From Bacteroidales bacterium (GTDB lineage Bacteria > Bacteroidota > Bacteroidia > Bacteroidales > JBGRPZ01), in contig JBGRQE010000001.1 of NCBI GenBank assembly GCA_041725955.1, positions 47,890-111,889 of the forward strand: DNA of 64,000 bases. Direction: 5' to 3'. Position numbers and translations under genes: made by a program. Under the pieces are notes generated by a model. That model had not been told where the DNA came from. It saw only the letters and a list, made by a program, of their open reading frames with translations, and did not search any database. This document shows, one piece after another, positions 1,512-49,515 of this stretch; the first letter of the stretch is position 1; every line of letters starts with the position of its first letter.

Positions 1512-2873
1512 CTAAATGCAAACAATAAAGCTAGTACCCAAACCTTGTTCCGACTCGACATTAAGATCGCCATTATGCATTTGGATAATCTGGCGCGATA
1601 GGCTTAAGCCAATACCACTTCCTTGCTTCTTTGATGTAAAGAATGGCATAAATATCTTATCCATAATATCGGGTTTTATCCCTGGACCATTGTCGTGAAT
1701 TTCTATTTGAGTTTGGTTTTTATTTTGGTAGGCCCGTAAGGTAATTTTTGCATATTCTGTTTGATTGCCGTGTAATGCATCAATGGCATTTCGAATAAGA
1801 TTAATTAGAACTTGTTGCAGCAGATCGGGATCGGCAGTTAATTTTATCTCTTCAGGAAAAATTTGAATGTTCAGATCTATATGTTTCTCGTTTAGCTCTT
1901 TGGTGAAGAGTTGTTTTAATATAGATAGCCTGTTGTTTAGCGAGAAATATCTAAAGTTGGGTTTAGGAATACGGGTAAGGTTTCTGTATAGTGTAACAAA
2001 GTTTAATAGTCCTTGCGATCTGGTTTCAATGGCTTTCATAGCCATATTTACATCCTCCAGATCATTCTGATCTAGCTTTTGCCAGCAAGGCTTATTATTC
2101 TCGTCTTCTGTAATAATTATATCTTTTATAGTTCCTGCAAGTGAACTGATGGGAGTTATAGAGTTGGTGATTTCATGGGTAAGCACACGGATTAGTTTTT
2201 GCCATGATTCAACTTCTTTTTGATCCAGTTCATTTTTAATATTCTGAAGCGAAATAAGGGTCATCTCCTTATTGCTCATTCTAAACTTAGCAGCATGGAC
2301 GGAAATTTGAGATAGCTCTTTTTCCTGAAATAAACGGAAAAGGTTTTTTTCATTATCCTTAAGATTAACAAATTGATTGGATAGGTCGTCTTCAATCTGA
2401 TTAAGATCTTTTATATTGCGTAAATGGTTTAGCTTAAGGATTTTCTTAGATGTATTATTAAAGATGTGAATCTTTCCATGTTTATCGAAAACAATGATTC
2501 CTACATTAATATGCTGAACAATGGTTTGTAGATAAAGGAAATGCTCTTCAGTTTCGGATCGGTATTTTTGGAATTCATCAATTACCTTATTGAATTCATT
2601 ATCTAAGTTATTAAAGGTTTTCCCCATTTTTGGGTCCTTAAAAGATACCGAGAAATCGTTAAACTGTATGCTTTGCAAAAACTTGCTAAGCTTGCGGTTT
2701 GTATTCTCCAGGTAGTGTATAAGGCGAATGATAATCCATACAATTATTATTACCAGAAATAATGTAGAAAAGTTAATGCCGAACTTAATGGAGTTATAGC
2801 AAAGTATAAAAATCATTAAGCTCAGCAGGCATACTCTAAGTATAATATTTTGTCGGAAATTTTTAAAGACCAT
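1512..2873 (-). CDS. sensor histidine kinase (NtrB/AtoS-like)
   Basis: 453 aa. Two N-terminal TM helices, H-box LTHEITNSITPI, and HATPase_c boxes (IRNAIDAL, DNGPGI, GSGIGLSLS). Overlaps the upstream regulator gene by 11 nt. Confidence 0.85.
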   Translation of the reverse strand: MVFKNFRQNIILRVCLLSLMIFILCYNSIKFGINFSTLFLVIIIVWIIIRLIHYLENTNRKLSKFLQSIQFNDFSVSFKDPKMGKTFNNLDNEFNKVIDEFQKYRSETEEHFLYLQTIVQHINVGIIVFDKHGKIHIFNNTSKKILKLNHLRNIKDLNQIEDDLSNQFVNLKDNEKNLFRLFQEKELSQISVHAAKFRMSNKEMTLISLQNIKNELDQKEVESWQKLIRVLTHEITNSITPISSLAGTIKDIIITEDENNKPCWQKLDQNDLEDVNMAMKAIETRSQGLLNFVTLYRNLTRIPKPNFRYFSLNNRLSILKQLFTKELNEKHIDLNIQIFPEEIKLTADPDLLQQVLINLIRNAIDALHGNQTEYAKITLRAYQNKNQTQIEIHDNGPGIKPDIMDKIFMPFFTSKKQGSGIGLSLSRQIIQMHNGDLNVESEQGLGTSFIVCI

Positions 2874-4242
2874 ATTTCTCGATTCTACGATATAGCGATG
2901 CTCTAGTTAGTCCAAGTTCGTTAGCTGCTTTACTAATATTTCCGTTATGCTTATCAATAACCTTTCGGATTAAGATTTTTTCTGTTTCTTCAAGATTTGT
3001 AGTTTTGGGAATAAAGTCGTCATCTTTATTTTCCTCATTTTGTTGCAGAAAAAAATCATGAGGCTCCAGAATATTATTTTCACTTAAAATTACAGCTCTT
3101 TCAATAGCATGTTGTAGCTCACGAATATTTCCTGGCCAGTCGTGTTTTTGTAGCCTTTTTAATGTTGATGAGTTTATTCGTTTTGTTGGTAAGTTATATT
3201 TCTTACAATATTTTTGAAGGAAGAACTCAGTGAGAAGTCCAATATCTTCGACTCTATCGCGCAATGGCGGGAGTTTAATTTCGACAGTATTTATACGATA
3301 AAGTAAATCCTGACGGAACTTACTCTCTTTTACCATTTGATATAGAGGCATATTCGTAGCGCAAACCAATCGGGCATTTATAGAAACTTCTTTATTAGAT
3401 CCCAGACGAACCACCTTACGGTTTTGCAGAACGCTAAGCAGTTTTGCTTGCATATTAAAGCTAAGGTTTCCTATTTCATCAAGGAATATAGTTCCTCCAT
3501 TTGCAGCTTCAAATCTACCGGCACGATCTTCCTTGGCATCGGTAAAAGCACCTTTTTTAAAACCGAATAATTCACTTTCAAACAAACTTTCGGAGATTGC
3601 GCCTAGATCGACGTTAACAAAAACTTCTTTGTTTCGAGGAGAGTAGTTGTGTATAGAGCGGGCGATAACTTCTTTTCCGGTACCATTTTCTCCAAGAATT
3701 AAGATGTTTACATCAGTACGTGCAACTTTCTTTAGAGTTTGCATTACTTGTTTCATGGCCAAGGAGGTGCCAATGACAAAATCTTCTTGTTTGTTGCTAG
3801 AATCTACAAGGGCTTTGTTTTTTGTTTTCAGGCTTTCGAGTTCTACTTTAGATTTTCTCATTTCTAAGGTAGCTTTAATTGTTGCCAGCAATTTTTTATT
3901 ATCCCAAGGTTTAAGCAAGAAGTTTGTTGCGCCTTCTTTTATACCTTGAACAGCCAGTTCGATATCACCATATCCAGTAATAAATATTACAGCTGCACTG
4001 GGGTCTATTTCCAAAATTTTATTCATCCAGTGGAAGCCTTCTTTTCCGCTGGTAGCGTCTCGTGAAAAGTTCATATCCAAAATAAAGAGATCATAGTTCT
4101 CATTTTGAATCAGAGTCGGGATGTTTTCAGGGTTTTGTTCGGTATGAACAAATTCTATATGTTGTCTTAAAAATAATCTGGCTGCGAGTAAGACATCTTG
4201 ATCATCGTCAACAATGAGTATTTTGGCTTTTATTTTTTCCAT
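2863..4242 (-). CDS. sigma-54-dependent response regulator (NtrC family)
   Basis: 459 aa. REC domain (ILIVDDDQD...ILDMNF). AAA+ sigma-54 interaction domain (Walker A GENGTGKE, loop GAFTDA, Walker B FLDEIG). C-terminal Fis-type HTH (AANELGLTRASLYRRIEKYGL). Confidence 0.9.
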   Translation of the reverse strand: MEKIKAKILIVDDDQDVLLAARLFLRQHIEFVHTEQNPENIPTLIQNENYDLFILDMNFSRDATSGKEGFHWMNKILEIDPSAAVIFITGYGDIELAVQGIKEGATNFLLKPWDNKKLLATIKATLEMRKSKVELESLKTKNKALVDSSNKQEDFVIGTSLAMKQVMQTLKKVARTDVNILILGENGTGKEVIARSIHNYSPRNKEVFVNVDLGAISESLFESELFGFKKGAFTDAKEDRAGRFEAANGGTIFLDEIGNLSFNMQAKLLSVLQNRKVVRLGSNKEVSINARLVCATNMPLYQMVKESKFRQDLLYRINTVEIKLPPLRDRVEDIGLLTEFFLQKYCKKYNLPTKRINSSTLKRLQKHDWPGNIRELQHAIERAVILSENNILEPHDFFLQQNEENKDDDFIPKTTNLEETEKILIRKVIDKHNGNISKAANELGLTRASLYRRIEKYGL

Positions 4243-12778: not shown

Positions 12779-13996
12779 ATGAGGATAAATTATATTATTA
12801 GTTGTTCTTTAGTTTTTTTTATTTCCATTATTATTTTTTCTTCCTGTCAGCAAAATAAAGAAAAGTGGCAATCTGAGAATGCAACAAAATATTTAGATCA
12901 AAAAACACTTAGAAAGAAGAGGGTTTTTTCATTTCCAATAGATTCTAATATTGCTTTAGTGAATAGCAATTCTTTTAGAATAATGAATGACAGTATAATG
13001 TTCTTTGGAAATAATGATCAATCAAAGGTATTTTATTACAATATTAAAAATGGGGAATTATTAAATTCATATTATTTTCCTCCAGAGGGGCCTAATGCAT
13101 TAATAAAAGATATGTGTAATTATTTTATACCTTCTTCTATTGATGATGTAATTACGTTTTGCCACAGAAAAGCAGAGCTAGGAGTTTATCAGGATGGACA
13201 ATTGAAGCATAGAATATCTCTTGTTGATACAGCGAATTTTAATAAGAAAGCTCGCCAAGGTAAGAATCCATTTTTTTCGTATCCTGCCAAACCTAGTATA
13301 TTTGATGTCGTTGATTCTTCAGTTTTTGTTACATATTTTCAGTCAAAAGAAACTGAATGTGGAAATATTCCTGCCTTTAGAGTTTTTAAAATTCCAATCA
13401 ATACTCATGATAGTATTAAAGCAATGATTCCGCTGGCACAGAATTATAAAACAGGGTATTATGGACATTCTTTTAATTCCACATTGCCTTGTTTAACTTA
13501 TAATTCAAAAAAGAAAGTTATTTCTTCACACCAACCAGCATCTCATTATATTGAAAATTACAATTTGAATGGAGATTTATTGGAAACTAGTTTTGTAGGA
13601 TCTAAATATTATAGCAACGTAATACCGCCGTTTTCAGATCAATATGAGAAAAACAGAAGAGAGGAAGTAGATCAATATCTTGCTACCCAGTTTCACTTTT
13701 TAGACTTAATTTATGATCAATATCGTAATTTGTATTATCAGTGGTGTAAACTTCCTGTGCCTCTTGATATATTTAAGCAAACGGGCTGGTATACTTATGA
13801 GTGTAGCTTATTGATTCTTGATGAGGATTTAAAAAAAATTGGAGAGGTAGATTTCAAAGGGGGAAATAATTCAAACAACTATAATGTGTGGAATACAATG
13901 ATTTGTCCTGAAGGATTAATTTTAATGAGGAATGATTTGTATGAAAAGAACCCCAATTCTTTCTATTTTGAAGTTTTTGATGTTGTTGAGAAATAA
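12779..13996 (+). CDS. lipoprotein, possibly DUF4221/TolB-like six-bladed propeller family
   Basis: 405 aa. Lipoprotein signal with Cys23 (IIIFSSC). The size and the EGPN motif (PPEGPNALI) recall DUF4221-type Bacteroidota lipoproteins. The family call is from memory only. Confidence 0.4.
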   Translation: MRINYIISCSLVFFISIIIFSSCQQNKEKWQSENATKYLDQKTLRKKRVFSFPIDSNIALVNSNSFRIMNDSIMFFGNNDQSKVFYYNIKNGELLNSYYFPPEGPNALIKDMCNYFIPSSIDDVITFCHRKAELGVYQDGQLKHRISLVDTANFNKKARQGKNPFFSYPAKPSIFDVVDSSVFVTYFQSKETECGNIPAFRVFKIPINTHDSIKAMIPLAQNYKTGYYGHSFNSTLPCLTYNSKKKVISSHQPASHYIENYNLNGDLLETSFVGSKYYSNVIPPFSDQYEKNRREEVDQYLATQFHFLDLIYDQYRNLYYQWCKLPVPLDIFKQTGWYTYECSLLILDEDLKKIGEVDFKGGNNSNNYNVWNTMICPEGLILMRNDLYEKNPNSFYFEVFDVVEK

Positions 13997-21100: not shown

Positions 21101-21381
21101 CTGCAATATATCTATTGGCAGAATTCAATAGAAAATTGAAAATACAAAAGAATAGAAATCAAAAAAGTATAGGTGTTTATCTAAAAGCTTTTAATCATAA
21201 GATAACTTCAATAATTTCAACAATTATATCTACATGTTTAGGGATGTTGCCATTTATCTTCTTTGGGCAAAAGAATGACTTTTGGTATAGCTTGGCTGCT
21301 GGAACTATTGGGGGACTTTTATTCTCAATTATTGTATTAATTATTTTTATTCCTTTGTTTCTGAAATTCGATTCTAAATGA
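18190..21381 (+). CDS. RND efflux permease, AcrB superfamily (subunit 2, divergent)
   Basis: 1063 aa. ATGA overlap with the upstream RND gene. TM4-like motif LGLVLDNMMVMLDH. The C-terminal half again has 6 TM helices. Confidence 0.8.
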   Translation: MRTQKPVSIPYSFGFVLIFTLLAIVGFSLIPKLNFTPFPSEKNRTFLVNYSWPKHSAQQVNDRITCVLEAQLNHIKGIKSIEATSNYGCGELLIKVLPKVDTDKFRLKLQMLLRSVFNELPKGIDFPRISYQTYKKYSSKRPIIVLSISSTKDLLSIEDFFYRDMSFQLSRIKGVGKIKLLGQKDSHLNFYLKEKLIQSLGLSKREIKNVLNIAFKENDLGIVFNKNSLGNKSSEINCIARVEKANSIKDLKLIPVRKCQERIILIKDICDSVAQKDIYKTILRVNGKKALYVNIYPDDATNQLSCRKKILDKICELQHSTEKDFTVSLEEDHLKHLESEMFRVLCRTLIAVLVLMAFLWLYRRNIWYILILTYCLLVNMGIGCIFYVLFGIEIHLYSLAAITIVLGLVLDNMMVMLDHIQHFKNKAAILPIVAACMTSISAIGMIFFLPEERQIGLADFAYVLIINLSISIFCSLFFLPAIITFFPQKKIYNKLRSRNRVKRILKLNKYYHSLIIRLRKYKIIIIILSFWIIGFPIYLLPPKWDADHFAARIYNASIGSRKYQYELKEHVDRLLGGCLYIYNYHIFDGTSSWEPDEDKGYHLKIEADFPAGVKISHIDEVVRKIESKMKTFPAINKYKARIDNQKLHFEVDFLSSLKKNNLPMALRIKMIHMSDQFKAASWHIYGVKPDYYSKPISNYYVEDNTFLKLEMRGPDRLILNKLLENIVKRIKEYPRISQVQILNNNEDVSKYKSFNLNLNKSFLGIYNIKKAKVQSAISEYNQEGNEFMHGYIDGHPYVFCLNKKEDVKWSLWNLRNKPLIDSLSFRGDNLFSISPKDKYVSICRKNQAYFQVLAFKYNASSTAKNKLLQDILKVENAKLPPAYYLSLENQELMNELKEKKKQPYYLVLLALVSVFFICAILFESFILALLIILILPISLCGGLFVFYFFDVHFSEGGLASFLILSGLVVNAAIYLLAEFNRKLKIQKNRNQKSIGVYLKAFNHKITSIISTIISTCLGMLPFIFFGQKNDFWYSLAAGTIGGLLFSIIVLIIFIPLFLKFDSK

Positions 21382-21403
21382 GTCTGTTCAAATGAGTCTG
21401 TTC
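21376..21403. repeat. perfect 14-bp tandem duplication spanning the RND stop codon
   Basis: AAATGAGTCTGTTC occurs twice back to back (21376-21389 and 21390-21403). Confidence 0.9.
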
Positions 21404-21417
21404 CAATAAGTGTGTCA

Positions 21418-21682
21418 CTATCACTCTTACCTTAAATCACTACCATTCCCACCTTTAAATCCACCGACACCTGCCCTTTAATTGATAAAAACCTCCTAGA
21501 TATTTGACGAAAACCTTCTAGGTATTTGATAAAAACCTCCTAGATATTTGGTGAAAACCTCCTAGATATTTGACGAAAACCTTCTAGGTATTTGATAAAA
21601 ACCTCCTAGATATTTGATAAAAACCTTCTAGGTATTTGATAAAAATCAAGTGTGTGTTAGGTATTAACTTACTGGGTTGCGT
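21418..21682 (+). repeat. composite head / 7x22-bp tandem repeat / tail element (copy A)
   Basis: Head 21418-21483. Seven contiguous 22-bp units at 21484-21637 (GATAAAAACCTCCTAGATATTT and variants). Tail 21638-21682. The architecture is shared with 49130-49372. Confidence 0.9.
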
Positions 21683-21686
21683 ATTA

Positions 21687-21713
21687 AAGGGGTCTGGTTA
21701 GATCCTTGTTTTT
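21687..21713 (+). terminator. possible terminator-like hairpin following repeat element A
   Basis: AAGGGGTC-TGGTTA-GATCCTT (imperfect stem) followed by GTTTTT. Confidence 0.3.
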
Positions 21714-27258: not shown

Positions 27259-27314
27259 GGTTCGAGTTTCGGGTTTCGTTGTTCGTGTTTCGTTGTTCGA
27301 GTTTCGTTATTCGG
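27259..27314. repeat. 8 x 7-nt tandem array (GTTTCGN)
   Basis: GGTTCGA GTTTCGG GTTTCGT TGTTCGT GTTTCGT TGTTCGA GTTTCGT TATTCGG, followed by a partly complementary CGAAA-rich segment (27321-27345). Confidence 0.85.
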
Positions 27315-27381
27315 GTGTGAAAAACAGAATGCGAAAAACGAAATTAGAGATCCAAAAAATTAATCAAATAATATATTTAGT

Positions 27382-28378: not shown

Positions 28379-31300
28379 ATGCCCAAAATATACACCCAAG
28401 GAATAGGAAAAATTAGTTTTTTGTGTCTTTTTATTTCCCTTTTTATCTTCCCAAGCAAAAATATATTAGGACAATTTTATAATGGGTCTCAAATGACTTT
28501 CGGTAAAAATAGAGTGCAGTATAAGGATTTTATATGGCTGTATTATCGTTTTGATCGTTTGGACACTTATTTTTATCAGGGAGGTGCTGAATTGGCTCAG
28601 TTTACATCGAAAACAGCAAAGGCCGAGCTGCATAATATGGAAAAGCGTTTGGGCTATAAATTGGAAGAAAAGATTCAGTTTTTAGTGTTTAATAATTATT
28701 CCGATTTAAGGCAAACAAATATCGGTCTTCAGGAAAATGAATCGTATAATTATAATACTGGTGGGATTTCTCATATAAAAGGAAATCGGGTTTTATTATA
28801 TTTTGATGGAGACCATAACCACTTAAGAATACAGATTAGAGAAGGTATTGCCGAGATGATCTTCAATCAGATGGTTTATGGAAGTAGTGTTGGTGCTCAG
28901 ATTAAGAATAATGCATTGATATATATTCCAGAATGGTATAAGAAGGGCTTGGTATCTTATTTGGCCGAGAGTTGGAACACTGAGAAAGATAATGAGCTAC
29001 GCGATTTATTCTTACATAATAAAGTAAAAAAATTCAATCAGATATTATCTGAACACACCGCTTTGGCAGGGCATTCAATGTGGTATTTTATCGAACAAAC
29101 GTATGGTATGAATAGCTTAAATGCTTTGGTTCAGATGTCGAGATTAAACCATGGTGTTGAGTTGAGTTTATTATATGCTTTGGGGGTAAATACAAAACAG
29201 TTGTTTCGTGAATGGTATAAGTTTTATGAACGCATATACAGCAGCGAACAATTTGATGCTGTTTCAGGTAAGTTGCTTCCATTAAAGTATAGGAAATACA
29301 GAAAAATCACTGCTATAAATAAGCAGCCTGGAGGGCAGATTATTGCATATGCTACCAATGAATTGGGGCAAAGTTCTTTGTTTTTGTATGATAAGATTAA
29401 GGGCAAAAGTAAAAGATGTTATAAAAAGGGATTTCGTGTTGGTGAGTTTCAAGATTTGAGTTATCCTTTATTGTCATGGCATCCTATGGGGAAAATACTT
29501 GCTTTTATTGTAGAGGAAAAAGGATTGATATTTTTACATTTATATAATCCTGCTACTCGTGAAATAGAAGTTAGGAATATGCATCAATTCACAAAAATCA
29601 GTCAGTTCTCTTTTAATAATAATGGAACACACTTAATATTGGCAGGAGTTCGTAATGGTCAAAGTGATTTGTTTTACTTTAATATTGCTGCCAATTCTTA
29701 TAAGCAATTAACAGATGATATTTATGATGATCTGTATCCTGTGTTTTCCGAACATAACGATTATATTTATTTTAGTTCAAATCGTCCACACGACTCCTTA
29801 TCTCCTTTAATAGAAAATCAAAGACCTCTAAAGAATTTAAATGTATTTGCATATGCTTTTAAGAATAAGCATGATCAATTGATTAATATTAGTAAGACAA
29901 AAAATGGGAATTGTATTTATCCAAAGGTTCGTAAAGACAATTCGTTATTTTATTTAAGTGATGAGTCTGGAATACGAAATGTATACCTAGGTGCTATTGA
30001 CAGTACAATAAATCATGTAGATACAATTGTTCATTATAGATATACTGCAAAGGCTTATCCTATTACGAATTTAACTCAATCTGTAGATTATCTGGATGTA
30101 GATCAGAGAGATCAAGATATGTTTGTTTTGAGTAGGGAAAACGATATGCATAAGGCTTATAAGATTGATTTTACTGCATTGCCAAAAGAGAAAGTAGTTG
30201 TTGAAGAGACTGTTTTCTATAGGCGTAAATTAGAGGTGAGAGATTTACAAAAGAAAAAAAGAAGTAGTTTAAGCCATAATAAAAAGAGAAAGCGATTTTA
30301 TGTTTCTCGCCGTGGAGGCGATGATAAAGAAAGAGAAGTAGGATCAAAAGAATTTGTTGCCCTTGAAAACTCTAAAGATACTACTGCTGTCGATTTAAAT
30401 ATTCCTTTGCCTTCATATGAGGATTTGTTGGACACAATGAGTTTTCCAAAGAAAAGGAATTATTATGTAGAATTTTTTATAAATAAGGTAACTGCCCGCT
30501 TAGATTATTCATATTTAAATACCAATTACCAACCTTATACTGGAGGGAAAAATGATTTCTTTTTTGGCCCGGATGGAGGAGGAAGTTCGTCGAGTAATCC
30601 TATATACTTAAATGGAGGTTATAATGGATTCTTTGAGCTTGGTATATCTGATTTGATGGAAGATCATCGCTTAAGTGGTGGAGTAAAGTTAAGTCCCGAT
30701 TTAGTGAATAACGAGTATATTGCCAGTTATAGTAATTTAAAGAATAGAACGGATTATAAACTTACTTTCCATAGACAGATTTATGAAAATTCAAAAACGG
30801 ATGGTATACAAAGAGTATATTCACATGAAATGATTCTTCAGGCAAGCTATCCTTTTAACGAAGCACTTAGCTGGAAATCTTCACTTGCCTATAGAAATCA
30901 GCACGGTTTATATCTTGCTGTAGATACTTATTCTTTAAGTATGCCCAAAACTACTCAGAATTGGGGGATTTTGCGACAGGAGTTGGTTTTTGACGGAACC
31001 CGGAGTTTAGGGTTGAACTTATATGAAGGAAGCAGATATAAGCTTTTTGGCGAGTATTACCAGCTGTTTGATAAGTTAAATGAAAATCTGTTTGTACTAG
31101 GTTTGGATATCAGGAAATATATTCGAATTCATCGTGATTTTATTTGGGCCAATCGTTTAGCAGCCAGTACTTCTTTTGGCCGAAATAAATTGCTTTATTA
31201 TATGGGAGGAGTAGACAGCTGGTTAACACCAAAGTTTAGTAGCAAGACTCCTGTCGATTATCGTGAAAGATGGGCATTTCAAACATTGGCAACCAATATG

Positions 31301-31690
31301 CGCGGTTTTAAGCAGAATATTAGAAATGGAAATAATTTTGTTGTTTTCAATTCAGAGTTGAGGTTTCCGGTTTTAAAGTATATAATGAATCGTCCGTTAA
31401 GAAGTGATTTATTAAATAATTTCCAAATTGTAGGATTTGGAGATATTGGTACGGCTTGGACAGGTTGGGATCCTTTTTCAAAAGAAAATGCTTTATATAC
31501 CTACTATATTCATAATGGACCAATGCGTATACGTGTAGAAACCGATAAAGATCCATTGGTAGGAGGGTTTGGAACAGGTTTGCGTACACGTTTATTGGGA
31601 TATTTTATTCGTACGGATTTAGCGTGGGGAATTGAAAATGCGGTTGTTCAAGATCCAGTATTCTATGTATCTTTAAGTTTAGATTTCTAG
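28379..31690 (+). CDS. large secreted/outer-membrane protein with PD40 (TolB-like) propeller repeats and a C-terminal beta-barrel-like domain
   Basis: 1103 aa. Signal peptide. PD40-like repeats (SWHPMGKILAFIVEEKG; NGTHLILAGVRNGQSDLFYF; YPVFSEHNDYIYFSSNR). K/R-rich linker (KKKRSSLSHNKKRKRF). C-terminal region of alternating strands ending in ...VSLSLDF. Confidence 0.55.
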   Translation: MPKIYTQGIGKISFLCLFISLFIFPSKNILGQFYNGSQMTFGKNRVQYKDFIWLYYRFDRLDTYFYQGGAELAQFTSKTAKAELHNMEKRLGYKLEEKIQFLVFNNYSDLRQTNIGLQENESYNYNTGGISHIKGNRVLLYFDGDHNHLRIQIREGIAEMIFNQMVYGSSVGAQIKNNALIYIPEWYKKGLVSYLAESWNTEKDNELRDLFLHNKVKKFNQILSEHTALAGHSMWYFIEQTYGMNSLNALVQMSRLNHGVELSLLYALGVNTKQLFREWYKFYERIYSSEQFDAVSGKLLPLKYRKYRKITAINKQPGGQIIAYATNELGQSSLFLYDKIKGKSKRCYKKGFRVGEFQDLSYPLLSWHPMGKILAFIVEEKGLIFLHLYNPATREIEVRNMHQFTKISQFSFNNNGTHLILAGVRNGQSDLFYFNIAANSYKQLTDDIYDDLYPVFSEHNDYIYFSSNRPHDSLSPLIENQRPLKNLNVFAYAFKNKHDQLINISKTKNGNCIYPKVRKDNSLFYLSDESGIRNVYLGAIDSTINHVDTIVHYRYTAKAYPITNLTQSVDYLDVDQRDQDMFVLSRENDMHKAYKIDFTALPKEKVVVEETVFYRRKLEVRDLQKKKRSSLSHNKKRKRFYVSRRGGDDKEREVGSKEFVALENSKDTTAVDLNIPLPSYEDLLDTMSFPKKRNYYVEFFINKVTARLDYSYLNTNYQPYTGGKNDFFFGPDGGGSSSSNPIYLNGGYNGFFELGISDLMEDHRLSGGVKLSPDLVNNEYIASYSNLKNRTDYKLTFHRQIYENSKTDGIQRVYSHEMILQASYPFNEALSWKSSLAYRNQHGLYLAVDTYSLSMPKTTQNWGILRQELVFDGTRSLGLNLYEGSRYKLFGEYYQLFDKLNENLFVLGLDIRKYIRIHRDFIWANRLAASTSFGRNKLLYYMGGVDSWLTPKFSSKTPVDYRERWAFQTLATNMRGFKQNIRNGNNFVVFNSELRFPVLKYIMNRPLRSDLLNNFQIVGFGDIGTAWTGWDPFSKENALYTYYIHNGPMRIRVETDKDPLVGGFGTGLRTRLLGYFIRTDLAWGIENAVVQDPVFYVSLSLDF

Positions 31691-36312: not shown

Positions 36313-37659
36313 TTAGACTTGTTCATTTTTGAGCATACGGTAGAGGGTTGATTTACCAATCTGAAGTTTTTTCGACACCAGAAGGACATTTTGATTATAC
36401 TTATCAAGATAATAACGAATTATTTTTTTTTGGTAGCTTGCCAAAGGCATTTCTTCTTCATGTTTTTCTAGGAAATCGGGTGTTTCTGTAAAAGAAATAT
36501 CTTTAGAATCAATTATATTATTATCACTTAAAACTACTGAAAGATCAACAATAGCTTTAAGTTCTCTGATATTTCCAGGAAATTTATAAGAAGACAATTT
36601 TTCCAGAGCTTGATGGCTTAATGTTTTTATTGGTTTTTGATTTTCTTTGCAAAATTCACTACAAAAATATTTAGCAAGAAGAGAGATGTCATTTCTCCGA
36701 TCGCGTAATGGAGGTAAGAAAATGGGCAATCCTAATAAACGATAATATAGATCCTTACGGAAGTTTCCATTTTTAACTTCTTCAATAAGGTTTTTGTTAG
36801 ATGCTATAATAAGTCTGAAATTTGTTTTTATTATTTTGTTGCTTCCAATACGATGAAATTCTTTTTCTTGTAATACTCTTAATAGTTTTACTTGTATATT
36901 AGGAGGGATTTCAGTGATTTCGTCTAGGAAGAGTGTTCCTTTATTTGCTTCCTCAAGTTTCCCTATTCTACGTTTATCCGCACCAGTAAAAGCACCTTTT
37001 TCATGCCCAAACAATTCACTTTCCATCAGAGAGCTTGGGGTCGCACTTAGGTTTATTGCAACAAATGATCGGTTTTGCCTATTCGAATTTCTGTGAATGG
37101 CTTTGGCTACCAACTCTTTTCCTGTTCCTGTTTCTCCTTGAATAGAAATAGAAATATTGGTTTCCGTAGCTTTTTTCATCAATTCAAAAACTCTCTTTAA
37201 GCATGTGCTTTTTCCTTTTATATCTTTTCTGAAATTCTTTATAATGTCCTTTTCTGAATAATATTTATTGTAGTTTATGGATGTATCTTTTTTATTTTGC
37301 TTAATGTTTTCTACAACTTCCCATAGTCGTTGTTTTACATCCTCATCTTTTTCGAAATAATCACATGCCCCTGCCTTTAGAACATTAATAGCAGTAGATA
37401 TTTTTTCTTGTCCCGAAATCATTATAACAGGAGTGAAAATATCTATTGATTTTATTCTCTTTAAAACATCAATTCCTAACATATCGGGTAAGGAGTAATC
37501 CAGAGAAATTAATGATGGATTTAAATGCATATGTTTTAAGCAATCTACGCCCTTGGAGAAGTGATATACTTTGTTTGCTGGATTTTTTTCGAGGAAGTGT
37601 TTTAGCATAGCCCCATAAAAAGAGTTGTCCTCTACGATAAAGATCCTAAATGGCTCCAT
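36313..37659 (-). CDS. sigma-54-dependent response regulator (no adjacent kinase)
   Basis: 448 aa. REC domain (RIFIVEDNS...SLDYSLPDM). AAA+ domain (GETGTGKE, canonical GAFTGA, FLDEITEI). C-terminal HTH (SKKLQIGKSTLYRMLK). Confidence 0.9.
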   Translation of the reverse strand: MEPFRIFIVEDNSFYGAMLKHFLEKNPANKVYHFSKGVDCLKHMHLNPSLISLDYSLPDMLGIDVLKRIKSIDIFTPVIMISGQEKISTAINVLKAGACDYFEKDEDVKQRLWEVVENIKQNKKDTSINYNKYYSEKDIIKNFRKDIKGKSTCLKRVFELMKKATETNISISIQGETGTGKELVAKAIHRNSNRQNRSFVAINLSATPSSLMESELFGHEKGAFTGADKRRIGKLEEANKGTLFLDEITEIPPNIQVKLLRVLQEKEFHRIGSNKIIKTNFRLIIASNKNLIEEVKNGNFRKDLYYRLLGLPIFLPPLRDRRNDISLLAKYFCSEFCKENQKPIKTLSHQALEKLSSYKFPGNIRELKAIVDLSVVLSDNNIIDSKDISFTETPDFLEKHEEEMPLASYQKKIIRYYLDKYNQNVLLVSKKLQIGKSTLYRMLKNEQV

Positions 37660-47354: not shown

Positions 47355-48833
47355 TTATAATTCTTTCCTTAGTCGTGCCACTGATATATTCAATTGTTCT
47401 CTGTATTTGGCAACCGTACGTCGTGCAATATTGTACCCCTTTTCTTTTAAAATTTTAGTTAGTTGCTCGTCTGTAAGTGGTTTTTTCTTGTTTTCCGTTT
47501 GAATACAATCGTCTAGAATTTTTTTTATCTCGCGTGTGGATACTTCTTCACCATCAGACTTGGTTAAAGATTCGGAAAAGAAACTCTTTAGAAGAAAAGT
47601 TCCAAATGGAGTTTGTACATATTTTGAGTTTGCCACCCTTGAGATTGTAGAGATATCTAGATTCACTCTTTCAGCGATATCTTTTAAGATCATAGGTCTG
47701 AGTTTGGTTTCATCGCCAGTAATGAAATAATTAATTTGATATTCCATAATGGCATTCATGGTAACCAAAAGCGTATTTTGTCTTTGCTTGATGGCATCTA
47801 TAAACCACTTGGCAGAGTCTATTTTTTGCTTTACAAACATTAGGGCATCTTTCTGCTGTTTGTTTTTCTTATTCTCAGAATATGCCTCCAACATATTTGT
47901 ATAAGACCTGCTAAGTCTTAGTTCAGGTACGTTTTTTGAGTTAAGCGATAATTCCAGATCTCCATTATTATTGGTAATTATAAAATCGGGAAGAATATAA
48001 TGGTTTGTTTTGCTGGTTTCGCTTAATGAGTTTCCTGGTTTCGGATTTAGCTTTAGTACTTGCTCGATGGCATCTTTCAATCTATCAGCTGTAATACCCG
48101 AGCGTTTTATAATTTTCTCATAATGTTTTTTTGTAAATTCATTAAAGTAACGATCTAAAACCAATATAGCATCATCAATACTCTGTTTGTCTTCTTCCGA
48201 TTTTTTTCGTTTTAGCTGTATAAGTAGGCATTCTTGCAAACTTCGAGCACCCACCCCTGAAGGATCGAATGATTGTATAATCTCAAGAATGCCAGTGAGT
48301 TCTCCTTGGTCTGTGGTTAAGTTTTGAGAAAAGGCAAGATCATCGACCATGGCTTCAACATCACGTTGAAGATAGCCCGAATCATCAAGGTTTCCAATTA
48401 TATAAGATGCTATCTGATATTGTCTGTTATCAAGTATATGCTCGCCAAGTTGATTGATTAGTAATTCTTGGAAGCTTAAACCAGATATAAAAGGAATATC
48501 TCTGGGCTCATCATCTCCCATTGAGTTATTTGAACTTAGTTTATAGGAAGGAGTGTCATCATCTTCCATATAATCAGATAAATCGAATTCGTCTTCTTTA
48601 TTATATTCGTCTTCTTGTTTTTCTTCGTTATAATTATCGCTTTCTGCATTTTCGCTTGTATCGGCATCAAACTGATCGGGGTCGGCCATATCTTCCAGAG
48701 CAGGATTTTCTTCTATCTCTTGTTTAATGCGTTGCTCAATTGCCACAGAAGGTATTTGTAGAAGTTTCATCAACAGAATTTGCTGAGGAGAAAGCTTCTG
48801 TAGCAGTTTCTGCTGTAACTTTTGATTTAACAT
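47355..48833 (-). CDS. rpoN: RNA polymerase sigma-54 factor
   Basis: 492 aa. Gln/Leu-rich region I (MLNQKLQQKLLQKLSPQQ), acidic region II, and RpoN box ARRTVAKYR. Confidence 0.95.
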   Translation of the reverse strand: MLNQKLQQKLLQKLSPQQILLMKLLQIPSVAIEQRIKQEIEENPALEDMADPDQFDADTSENAESDNYNEEKQEDEYNKEDEFDLSDYMEDDDTPSYKLSSNNSMGDDEPRDIPFISGLSFQELLINQLGEHILDNRQYQIASYIIGNLDDSGYLQRDVEAMVDDLAFSQNLTTDQGELTGILEIIQSFDPSGVGARSLQECLLIQLKRKKSEEDKQSIDDAILVLDRYFNEFTKKHYEKIIKRSGITADRLKDAIEQVLKLNPKPGNSLSETSKTNHYILPDFIITNNNGDLELSLNSKNVPELRLSRSYTNMLEAYSENKKNKQQKDALMFVKQKIDSAKWFIDAIKQRQNTLLVTMNAIMEYQINYFITGDETKLRPMILKDIAERVNLDISTISRVANSKYVQTPFGTFLLKSFFSESLTKSDGEEVSTREIKKILDDCIQTENKKKPLTDEQLTKILKEKGYNIARRTVAKYREQLNISVARLRKEL

Positions 48834-49129: not shown

Positions 49130-49372
49130 CTATCACTCTTACCTTAAATCACTACCATTCCTACCATTGAATTCCACGACACCTAACATTAATTGACTTT
49201 AAATCTCCTAGGTATTTGGTAAAAACCTCCTAGATATTTGATGAAAACCTCCAAGGTATTTGATGAAAACCTCCTAGATATTTGATGAAAACCTCCAAGG
49301 TATTTGATAAAAACCTCCAAGGTATTTGATGAATATCTACTGGGGGTGGATGTTAACTTATTGGGTTGTGGT
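49130..49372 (+). repeat. composite head / 6x22-bp tandem repeat / tail element (copy B)
   Basis: Head 49130-49194; its first 32 nt are identical to copy A. Six units at 49195-49327 (GATGAAAACCTCCAAGGTATTT / ...CCTCCTAGATATTT). Tail 49328-49372 shares TTAACTTAYTGGGTTGYG with copy A. Confidence 0.9.
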
Positions 49373-49466
49373 GTAATCATTACCTGCCTTGGTCGAAAGG
49401 TAAGGGTACATATTAAAGCTAGCTATATGGAGTGCGTTTATCTAGAGAATATAATTGTCGTGTACT

Positions 49467-49515
49467 AAAAAAAAGGCTATAGATCGGAAAAGATCTATAG
49501 CCTTGTATTTATTTT
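49467..49515 (-). terminator. asnS terminator (bidirectional hairpin)
   Basis: A8-GGCTATAGATC-GGAAAA-GATCTATAGCC followed by a T-rich run. The T8 lies on the minus strand after the stem. Confidence 0.8.

Follow-up and report, generated by a model that had tools for sequence, protein, structure and literature searches.

In the window, by which we mean the whole 64-kb stretch of DNA that was analyzed, the ORFs scanned with Pfam are ordinary chromosomal genes. None of the 42 scanned ORFs (each of at least 130 aa) encodes a Rep, Par, integrase, transposase, or Cas protein by Pfam. Six of them are unannotated, five having no Pfam match and one a sub-threshold match. A 1103-aa ORF (28379-31690) remains unmatched in Pfam, even with a cutoff of E = 1e-3.

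Two intergenic regions of the window hold a repeat cassette of the same build on the same strand. Two AcrB-type RND pump genes precede copy A, which starts 37 nt past the stop codon of the second one and ends 7 nt before a plus-strand hairpin; a convergent PIN-PhoH gene and then polA follow copy A on the 3' side. Copy B, at about 49130-49412, lies inside the 722-bp spacer between asnS and rpoN, both encoded on the minus strand. A perfect Bacteroidetes -7 box, TAnnTTTG (TATCTTTG), is found on the minus strand at 49075-49068, 55 nt beyond the copy B leader and ~235 nt upstream of the rpoN start codon. This box, the only perfect one found, is probably the rpoN promoter; its position implies a long rpoN leader and places cassette B directly upstream of that promoter. 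The parts of both cassettes and the adjoining features are collected in Table 1.

Table 1. Positions of the two cassettes, their parts, and adjoining features in the window
Feature	Positions	Strand	Basis or remark
14-bp tandem repeat AAATGAGTCTGTTC, 2.9 copies	21376-21415	+	Tandem Repeats Finder
Copy A, limits	21418-21681	+	Segment identity to copy B versus flanks
Copy A leader, part 1, CTATCACTCTTACCTTAAATCACTACCATTCC	21418-21449	+	Alignment; 32/32 identical to copy B, sharp left boundary
Copy A leader, part 2, C-rich	21450-21483	+	Alignment; 72% identical to copy B
Copy A core array, seven 22-bp units	21484-21637	+	Two unit variants, 66-bp higher-order period
Copy A tail, two decayed 22-bp units	21638-21681	+	13 and 11 of 22 versus core consensus
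Terminator-like hairpin and T-run	21688-21713	+	Hairpin detected at 21688-21707, then GTTTTTAAAC
Copy B, limits	49130-49371, extending maybe to 49412	+	Alignment to copy A
Copy B leader	49130-49195	+	First 32 nt identical to copy A, remainder 72%
Copy B array, six 22-bp units (first degenerate)	49196-49327	+	44-bp higher-order period
Copy B tail, two decayed units	49328-49371	+	13 and 12 of 22
B-specific 3' extension	49372-49412	+	Absent from copy A
Bidirectional intrinsic terminator	49473-49504	both	Shared with convergent asnS; separates copy B from asnS

Anatomy of copies A and B

A sequence-only reading of the window had described copy A as a three-part noncoding composite, free of spacers and with no Rep, integrase, or cas gene nearby. 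This description stands, as the units are contiguous and the Pfam scans were negative, and the base counts, the seven 22-bp units, the 62-bp duplicate, the 66-bp period, and the hairpin with its T-run were all confirmed. The head (21418-21483) contains 25 C versus 2 G, and the tail (21638-21686) contains 12 G versus 4 C. Tandem Repeats Finder placed the 22-bp array at 21482-21645 (7.5 copies, 85% matches, score 244) and also scored it as a 66-bp higher-order repeat (score 288); the stretch 21488-21549 recurs exactly at 21554-21615. Allowing up to three mismatches, the degenerate unit AAACCTYCWAGRTATTTG matched 15 times in the window versus 0.95 expected from shuffles, and 13 of these 15 matches fall inside arrays A and B.

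Within the units there is a partial dyad, AAAACCT-NNN-AGGTATTT. A CTAG-centered partial dyad (ACCTnCTAGGT) had been described for each unit; it is perfect solely in the CCTTCTAGGT variant, and the commoner unit, CCTCCTAGAT, has a C/A mismatch in it. Because CTAG gives TAG in every frame on both strands, no ORF runs through array A. We rejected coding repeats as an explanation on the grounds of these CTAG stops, and a 63-aa ORF over copy B is not conserved in copy A.

Copy B was placed by Tandem Repeats Finder at 49201-49333 for its array, which is built of the unit variants CCTCCTAGAT and CCTCCAAGGT. Its array consensus is identical to that of copy A at 19 of 22 positions (86%). The tails of the two copies are 71% identical over their first 44 nt, the tail of copy A being G/T-rich and sharing TTAACTTAYTGGGTTG with that of copy B; beyond the tails, the outer flanks are at background level. 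The left flanks are unrelated (49% with gaps). The heads match at 32 of 32 positions over the first 32 nt and at 72% over the next ~34 nt, and the probability of 32 straight identities at 72% identity is ~3e-5. Such a run is unlikely against that background, so the start of the leader is either constrained or recently converted. The C-rich head of A and B is shared inheritance and counts as one observation, not two independent ones. In the nearest relative, the rpoN-proximal flank of the array at the same site (described below) does not look C-rich on the corresponding strand, as judged by reading.

The edges of both arrays decay in 22-nt phase. Compared with the core consensus, successive blocks match at 13 and then 11 of 22 positions in copy A, and at 13, 12, and then 10 of 22 in copy B; random windows match at a mean of 7.8 of 22 (99th percentile, 12). 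The tail is thus at least partly made of decayed 22-bp units and is not a module of separate origin. On the 5' side, the last 22-nt blocks of the heads match at 10 to 11 of 22, a marginal resemblance that in copy A falls in leader part 2 and in phase, and Tandem Repeats Finder also scores 21415-21461 as ~2 copies of a 22-nt repeat. The cassette therefore has a homogeneous center, decayed edges, and a unique conserved 5' end. Decay of the units toward the 3' edge is as expected if slippage or unequal exchange homogenizes the center of the array. The arrays change by whole-unit and multi-unit duplication, as seen in the 62-bp duplicate and 66-bp period of copy A and the 44-bp period of copy B.

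In copy B, AAGGTAAGGGT (49397-49407) is an 11-nt, 91% inverted copy of the leader segment ACTCTTACCTT (49135-49145). This pair is a possible terminal inverted repeat; it is short, imperfect, confined to copy B, and one of 10 comparable pairs in that region. No target-site duplication is evident at the boundaries of A or B, and the loci of more distant Bacteroidales (L099-L104) are too diverged to read one. The AAATGAGTCTGTTC tandem repeat overlaps the RND-pump stop codon, abuts copy A, and is absent at copy B. It may be a by-product of local slippage or of a junction event at insertion.

The asnS-rpoN site in relatives

A two-unit degenerate pattern had no match in 185,579 species-representative genomes (GTDB, one per species), and a one-unit-plus pattern gave 13 single chance matches in JGI metagenomes, none of them tandem. 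Viral contigs, plasmids, and phages yielded no match to the element, a two-unit nhmmer profile found nothing over all collected loci, and the element was not found at 80 PhoH loci of other Bacteroidales. Arrays of 18 to 24 bp do occur near PhoH in distant Bacteroidales (L006, L018, L063, L073, and L074); these were set aside as heterogeneous, possibly partly coding, and unrelated.

The nearest relatives are the Logan assembly SRR33438324 (83% identity for rpoN and 89% for AsnRS) and GCA_041725915.1 (78% for PhoH, 75% for rpoN, and 83% for AsnRS). The latter is labeled Hyphomicrobiales and is probably mislabeled or mis-binned: its PhoH, RpoN, and AsnRS are 75 to 83% identical to those of the window, and gene order is shared (L094, L096, and L098).

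In more distant Bacteroidales (L099-L104), asnS and rpoN are adjacent and co-directional, with a spacer of 67 to 186 bp and no array. In the Logan relative, the asnS contig stops 172 bp past the stop codon, inside a 21-bp tandem array, and the rpoN contig begins in an array; the two contigs overlap by 27 nt, from which we infer that they join through one array. In GCA_041725915.1, eight copies of GAAG(G)AT lie within the 200 bp that separate the asnS terminator from the trkH terminator, at spacings of 22, 23, 22, 21, 23, 22, and 22 bp. The autocorrelation of this array at lag 22 is 0.56 (shuffle maximum, 0.41), and no other periodic cluster of five or more GAAG(G)AT motifs occurs in the 0.88 Mb of collected sequence. 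Three genomes each carry a 21- to 22-bp periodic array at the site downstream of asnS, and the asnS-rpoN spacer is compact and array-free in distant Bacteroidales but expanded and array-bearing here and in the two nearest relatives.

The units of these arrays are not demonstrably homologous. When the window arrays were locally aligned to those of the relatives, no part on either strand did better than shuffled sequence (p > 0.2 throughout), and we therefore limit our claim to shared position, period, and tandem nature. The likenesses first seen by eye between the window and the Logan relative, namely units of the form GATGAAA..CTAGGT.TT, GGTTGCG in the tail, and ACTCTT in the head, did not pass this comparison. 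In the 331 bp downstream of PhoH in GCA_041725915.1, no array is visible; copy A is probably the younger site.

Several smaller features accompany these loci. The GAAG(G)AT array of GCA_041725915.1 is covered by a called 80-aa ORF (L098, 11440-11682), which is almost certainly spurious. In the same genome, ATCTCCCC and ATCCTCCCCC motifs recur at ~23-bp spacing within a 1.6-kb gene-less stretch upstream of rpoN (L096, 8160-8240), which may mean that the separation of asnS from rpoN also split the array. The Logan relative has a second, unrelated 22-bp array, CTATTGGCTGAAGCACACTGTT, of ~6 units with a 44-bp higher-order period (L095, 13196-13329), located 45 nt past the terminator of an Ldh-family dehydrogenase gene. 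A C-rich, head-like motif after this second array (13340-13375) was not recovered by BLAST and was treated as chance. All five arrays found lie ~10 to 100 nt from a terminator-like hairpin, and 21- to 22-bp arrays beside terminators may be a recurring habit of the clade.

We considered whether the repeats arose by chance or through assembly. The source is a metagenome-assembled genome, tandem arrays are error-prone in short-read assemblies, and the contigs of the Logan relative break within the array. Exact unit numbers are possibly unreliable for the same reason, the array of copy A being 154 bp long with 62-bp exact repeats. However, two independent loci share a common 240- to 260-bp cassette with distinct higher-order structures and unique flanks, the unit pattern is far in excess of expectation (15 versus 0.95), and two other assemblies also have arrays at the syntenic site. 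Chance or artifact is thus a very improbable source of the element.

RNA and protein-binding readings

The strand asymmetry of head and tail had been taken to favor a strand-specific RNA. Under such a reading, A and B would be genes for a plus-strand small RNA, with the conserved 32 nt as a C/U-rich 5' seed and the repeated 22-nt modules titrating an RNA-binding protein or an RNA, and with termination at the downstream hairpins. Terminator-like sites do lie 3' of both copies on the plus strand, the 5' 32 nt are conserved between A and B, and copy B folds somewhat better than shuffles (z = -2.24), its head pairing with its tail. In addition, BrickBuilt regions of Porphyromonas gingivalis are transcribed, and one BrickBuilt locus was earlier called a putative sRNA (PMC4596501). 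The fold, however, is not a common property of the element. The head-tail stem of copy B relies on a 40-nt segment missing from copy A, and copy A folds no better than shuffles on the plus strand (z = -0.80). Arrays alone gave z = -1.7 and +0.2, and the whole elements gave +0.75 (A) and -0.87 (B) on the minus strand. The commonest unit, CCTCCTAGAT, is unfolded as RNA (0 kcal/mol), and single units fold weakly or not at all.

No promoter of the form TTTG-N(15-23)-TAnnTTTG lies upstream of A or B on the plus strand, and -7 boxes with one mismatch occur ~12 times per kb per strand, which makes them uninformative. Within the units, GATATTTG matches 7 of 8 positions of TAnnTTTG, but the -33 spacing is wrong, and this candidate promoter was rejected. 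An Rfam scan, which the sequence-only reading had proposed, gave no match at gathering thresholds in the whole window and just noise at E values up to 10 at both loci. With no promoter, Rfam match, or significant fold, the strand-specific RNA gained no support from the tests: a dedicated sRNA gene is not supported, and we consider a small-RNA function improbable.

Because copy A begins 37 nt past a stop codon, any transcript of it is more simply a 3' UTR. The plus-strand terminators after both copies and the closeness of copy A to the RND stop codon make passive 3' UTR transcription plausible. The hairpin at 21688-21713 probably ends the transcript of the RND operon, which would include copy A as its 3' UTR.

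A sponge of the CsrB/RsmZ type was a further candidate. AAGGAUG-like cores resemble the CsrA SELEX motif, and such cores in the relatives suggested it. We rejected it because the plus-strand units of the window lack GGA-type motifs (GGA in 0 of 13 by eye) and the strands are inconsistent; promoter, structure, and Rfam match were also lacking.

A second functional reading takes A and B as cis-acting protein-binding arrays that act as iterons or centromere-like repeats do. With one binding site every 22 bp, or about two helical turns, a protein that is dimeric or recognizes direct repeats would load one face of the helix and form a regulatory or architectural complex, at copy B just upstream of the rpoN promoter. 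Across three genomes the unit sequence changes, yet the period stays at 21 to 22 bp. GCA_041725915.1 keeps only the 6- to 7-nt core GAAG(G)AT, in 8 of 8 units, and the rest of the unit is near random. This core-only conservation is expected of binding sites, unlike a uniformly decaying satellite. Also consistent with binding are the partial dyad of the units, the fully conserved first part of the leader (32/32), and the presence of the probable rpoN promoter 55 nt outside the copy B leader.

Several observations weaken this reading. No candidate binding protein, rep, or par gene lies nearby, the element has no similarity to plasmid origins, and the dyad is broken in the commonest unit. Copy A sits between convergent genes, where there is no promoter to regulate, and there is no sigma-54 promoter near A or B. 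Nor do the units of the three genomes resemble one another significantly, which leaves no evident sign of a conserved protein-DNA code. Protein binding is therefore unlikely, though we give it slightly more weight than a small RNA.

Two specific binding candidates were dropped. A sigma-54 promoter or enhancer array was rejected for want of a strong GG-N10-GC promoter near A or B, and an IHF site (WATCAANNNNTTR) in the minus-strand unit has a spacing that is off by one.

The 22-bp array had been likened to iteron-type arrays. The R6K gamma origin carries seven contiguous 22-bp direct repeats. The likeness goes only as far as the 22-bp period of about two helical turns and the direct repetition. 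Our cassettes lack a rep gene, and neither DnaA boxes nor an AT-rich unwinding element was identified; they lie in a chromosomal housekeeping context, in two copies 28 kb apart, with no plasmid match. The tests gave the iteron reading no support: neither rep nor par genes nor plasmid or phage similarity were found, copy A lies between convergent genes, and the dyad is imperfect. A CRISPR array does not fit, since the units are contiguous without spacers and the Pfam-scanned window ORFs contain no cas domains.

Comparison with known modular repeats

The closest architectural counterpart is the BrickBuilt MITE of P. gingivalis, another member of the Bacteroidales, which has tandem 23-nt repeats without spacers between a distinct leader and tail (Klein et al. 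2015, Mob DNA 6:18; PMC4596501). Its 19 copies are all intergenic and species-restricted, with some loci in common with P. gulae; whole units are gained and lost between strains, and truncation proceeds from the distal ends (PMC4596501). Terminators lie beside 10 of the 19 copies, there is no Rfam match, and transcription is low or read-through (PMC4596501). BrickBuilt also has IS5-type 12-bp terminal inverted repeats, GAGACCTTTGCA and TGCAAAGGTCTC, a leader of up to 285 nt, and a tail of up to 318 nt (PMC4596501).

Our cassettes share the host order, the spacer-less tandem repeats (22 nt here versus 23 nt), and the leader and tail that flank the repeats and are common to copies A and B. They are likewise intergenic, near terminators, subject to whole-unit change and distal truncation, restricted in range, and without an Rfam match. 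Further likenesses are an excess of C over G on the repeat strand (A27 C25 G15 T31) and spurious "hypothetical protein" calls across repeats. However, the leader (~66 nt) and tail (44 to 85 nt) are shorter than the BrickBuilt maxima, two copies are seen in the 64-kb window versus 19, and no IS with matching ends was found. With up to two mismatches, GAGACCTTTGCA and TGCAAAGGTCTC had 5 matches in the window versus 4.9 by chance, none of them near A or B. The BrickBuilt unit AGACCATAGTATCCTCTCATATG compared with the window unit gave a best score of 12 over rotations and strands, versus a null mean of 11.1 (p = 0.30). As neither the IS5-like terminal repeats nor the unit sequence was matched, the element is not a member of BrickBuilt.

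BOX elements, which exceed 100 copies per genome and have a 45-bp boxB, offer a second comparison. In Streptococcus pneumoniae they consist of boxA, n copies of boxB, and boxC (Croucher et al. 2011; PMC3049150). They are enriched downstream of genes, their array length is most variable where arrays are long, and BOX RNA is tightly folded, with boxA hybridized with boxC (PMC3049150). Our cassettes are likewise composite, with a conserved 5' module followed by tandem units in variable number (seven or six here) and then a 3' module, and the ends of copy B can pair. In contrast, the BOX host belongs to the Firmicutes, and folding here is not significant (z = -0.8 for A, which has no pairing segment, and -2.2 for B). 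Sequence homology to BOX is unlikely because the hosts are in different phyla, and the likeness is one of architecture.

The MIRU minisatellites of mycobacteria and the REP/BIME clusters of Escherichia coli are interspersed extragenic units at the 3' ends of genes or between operon genes, and their number varies among strains. MIRUs carry small overlapping ORFs, and BIMEs alternate palindromic units in opposite orientation; neither is known to have a distinct leader and tail. They also differ from A and B in unit size and sequence.

Taken with these comparisons, A and B are best explained, in our view and with moderate confidence, as a lineage-specific, nonautonomous, noncoding, modular interspersed repeat with a minisatellite, of the BrickBuilt/BOX kind. 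What we observe is a cassette with a sharp left end at two or more unrelated intergenic sites. It looks most like a further case of the BrickBuilt/BOX-like repeats known in other bacteria and not like a new system. No transposase with matching ends was found, and a multi-copy family is putative, two copies being visible in the 64-kb window. The cassette would have spread through mobilization in trans or through recombination between copies, and the conserved 32-nt end may be the part that such spreading needs. It may persist beside intrinsic terminators because insertions are tolerated there. It would have no dedicated cellular function, and transcription would be passive only, with the RND efflux operon carrying copy A as its 3' UTR.

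The fallback of the sequence-only reading was a neutral satellite confined to this genome. A confined satellite comes closest to our findings, but the element is interspersed and modular like BrickBuilt and BOX, and strict neutrality fits less well because the first 32 nt, the unit core, and the 21- to 22-bp period are conserved beyond neutral decay. The 32/32 leader, the array consensus of 86% against a background of ~72%, and the core-only conservation in GCA_041725915.1 point to constraint. None is needed if the element is purely selfish or neutral, although constraint on transposition ends or gene conversion could explain the leader and the array consensus. For bacterial junk DNA, a 21- to 22-bp array kept at one site across relatives with 83 to 89% AsnRS identity is long-lived. 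The invariant leader, the conservation of the unit, and the conservation of core plus phase in the relative are why we do not call the element plain junk and why we keep both a binding array and an RNA role in view.

In their strongest form, such roles would make the arrays functional: clade-specific chromosomal binding sites, or a corresponding RNA, with a 21- to 22-bp period beside asnS and rpoN, selected for core and phasing. We regard this as doubtful, on a par with the small RNA. If true, the arrays would be an iteron-like architectural or regulatory device that is chromosomal and has no linked rep or par gene, and the invariant 32-nt leader would be a second recognition site.

If instead the modular-repeat reading is correct, an uncultured Bacteroidales lineage joins the few bacteria with minisatellite-bearing modular repeats (BrickBuilt, PgRS, and BOX). 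The invariant 32-nt leader, unit core, and fixed period would make it a tractable case for the question of repeat domestication. Such cassettes also have practical consequences. They interrupt short-read assemblies (in the Logan relative, two contigs end inside one), attract spurious gene calls (such as the 80-aa ORF in GCA_041725915.1), and are usable as strain-typing (VNTR) loci. They also mark points of rearrangement, the ancestral adjacency of asnS and rpoN being broken exactly at the array in both relatives.

Elsewhere in the window, a 7/14-bp tandem repeat, TTCGGGTTTCGTTG, is present in 3.5 copies at 27260-27316, between genes of the ROK family and the metallo-beta-lactamase fold. Two NtrC-type sigma-54 activator genes (2863-4242 and 36313-37659) and rpoN (47355-48833) occur within the same 64 kb.
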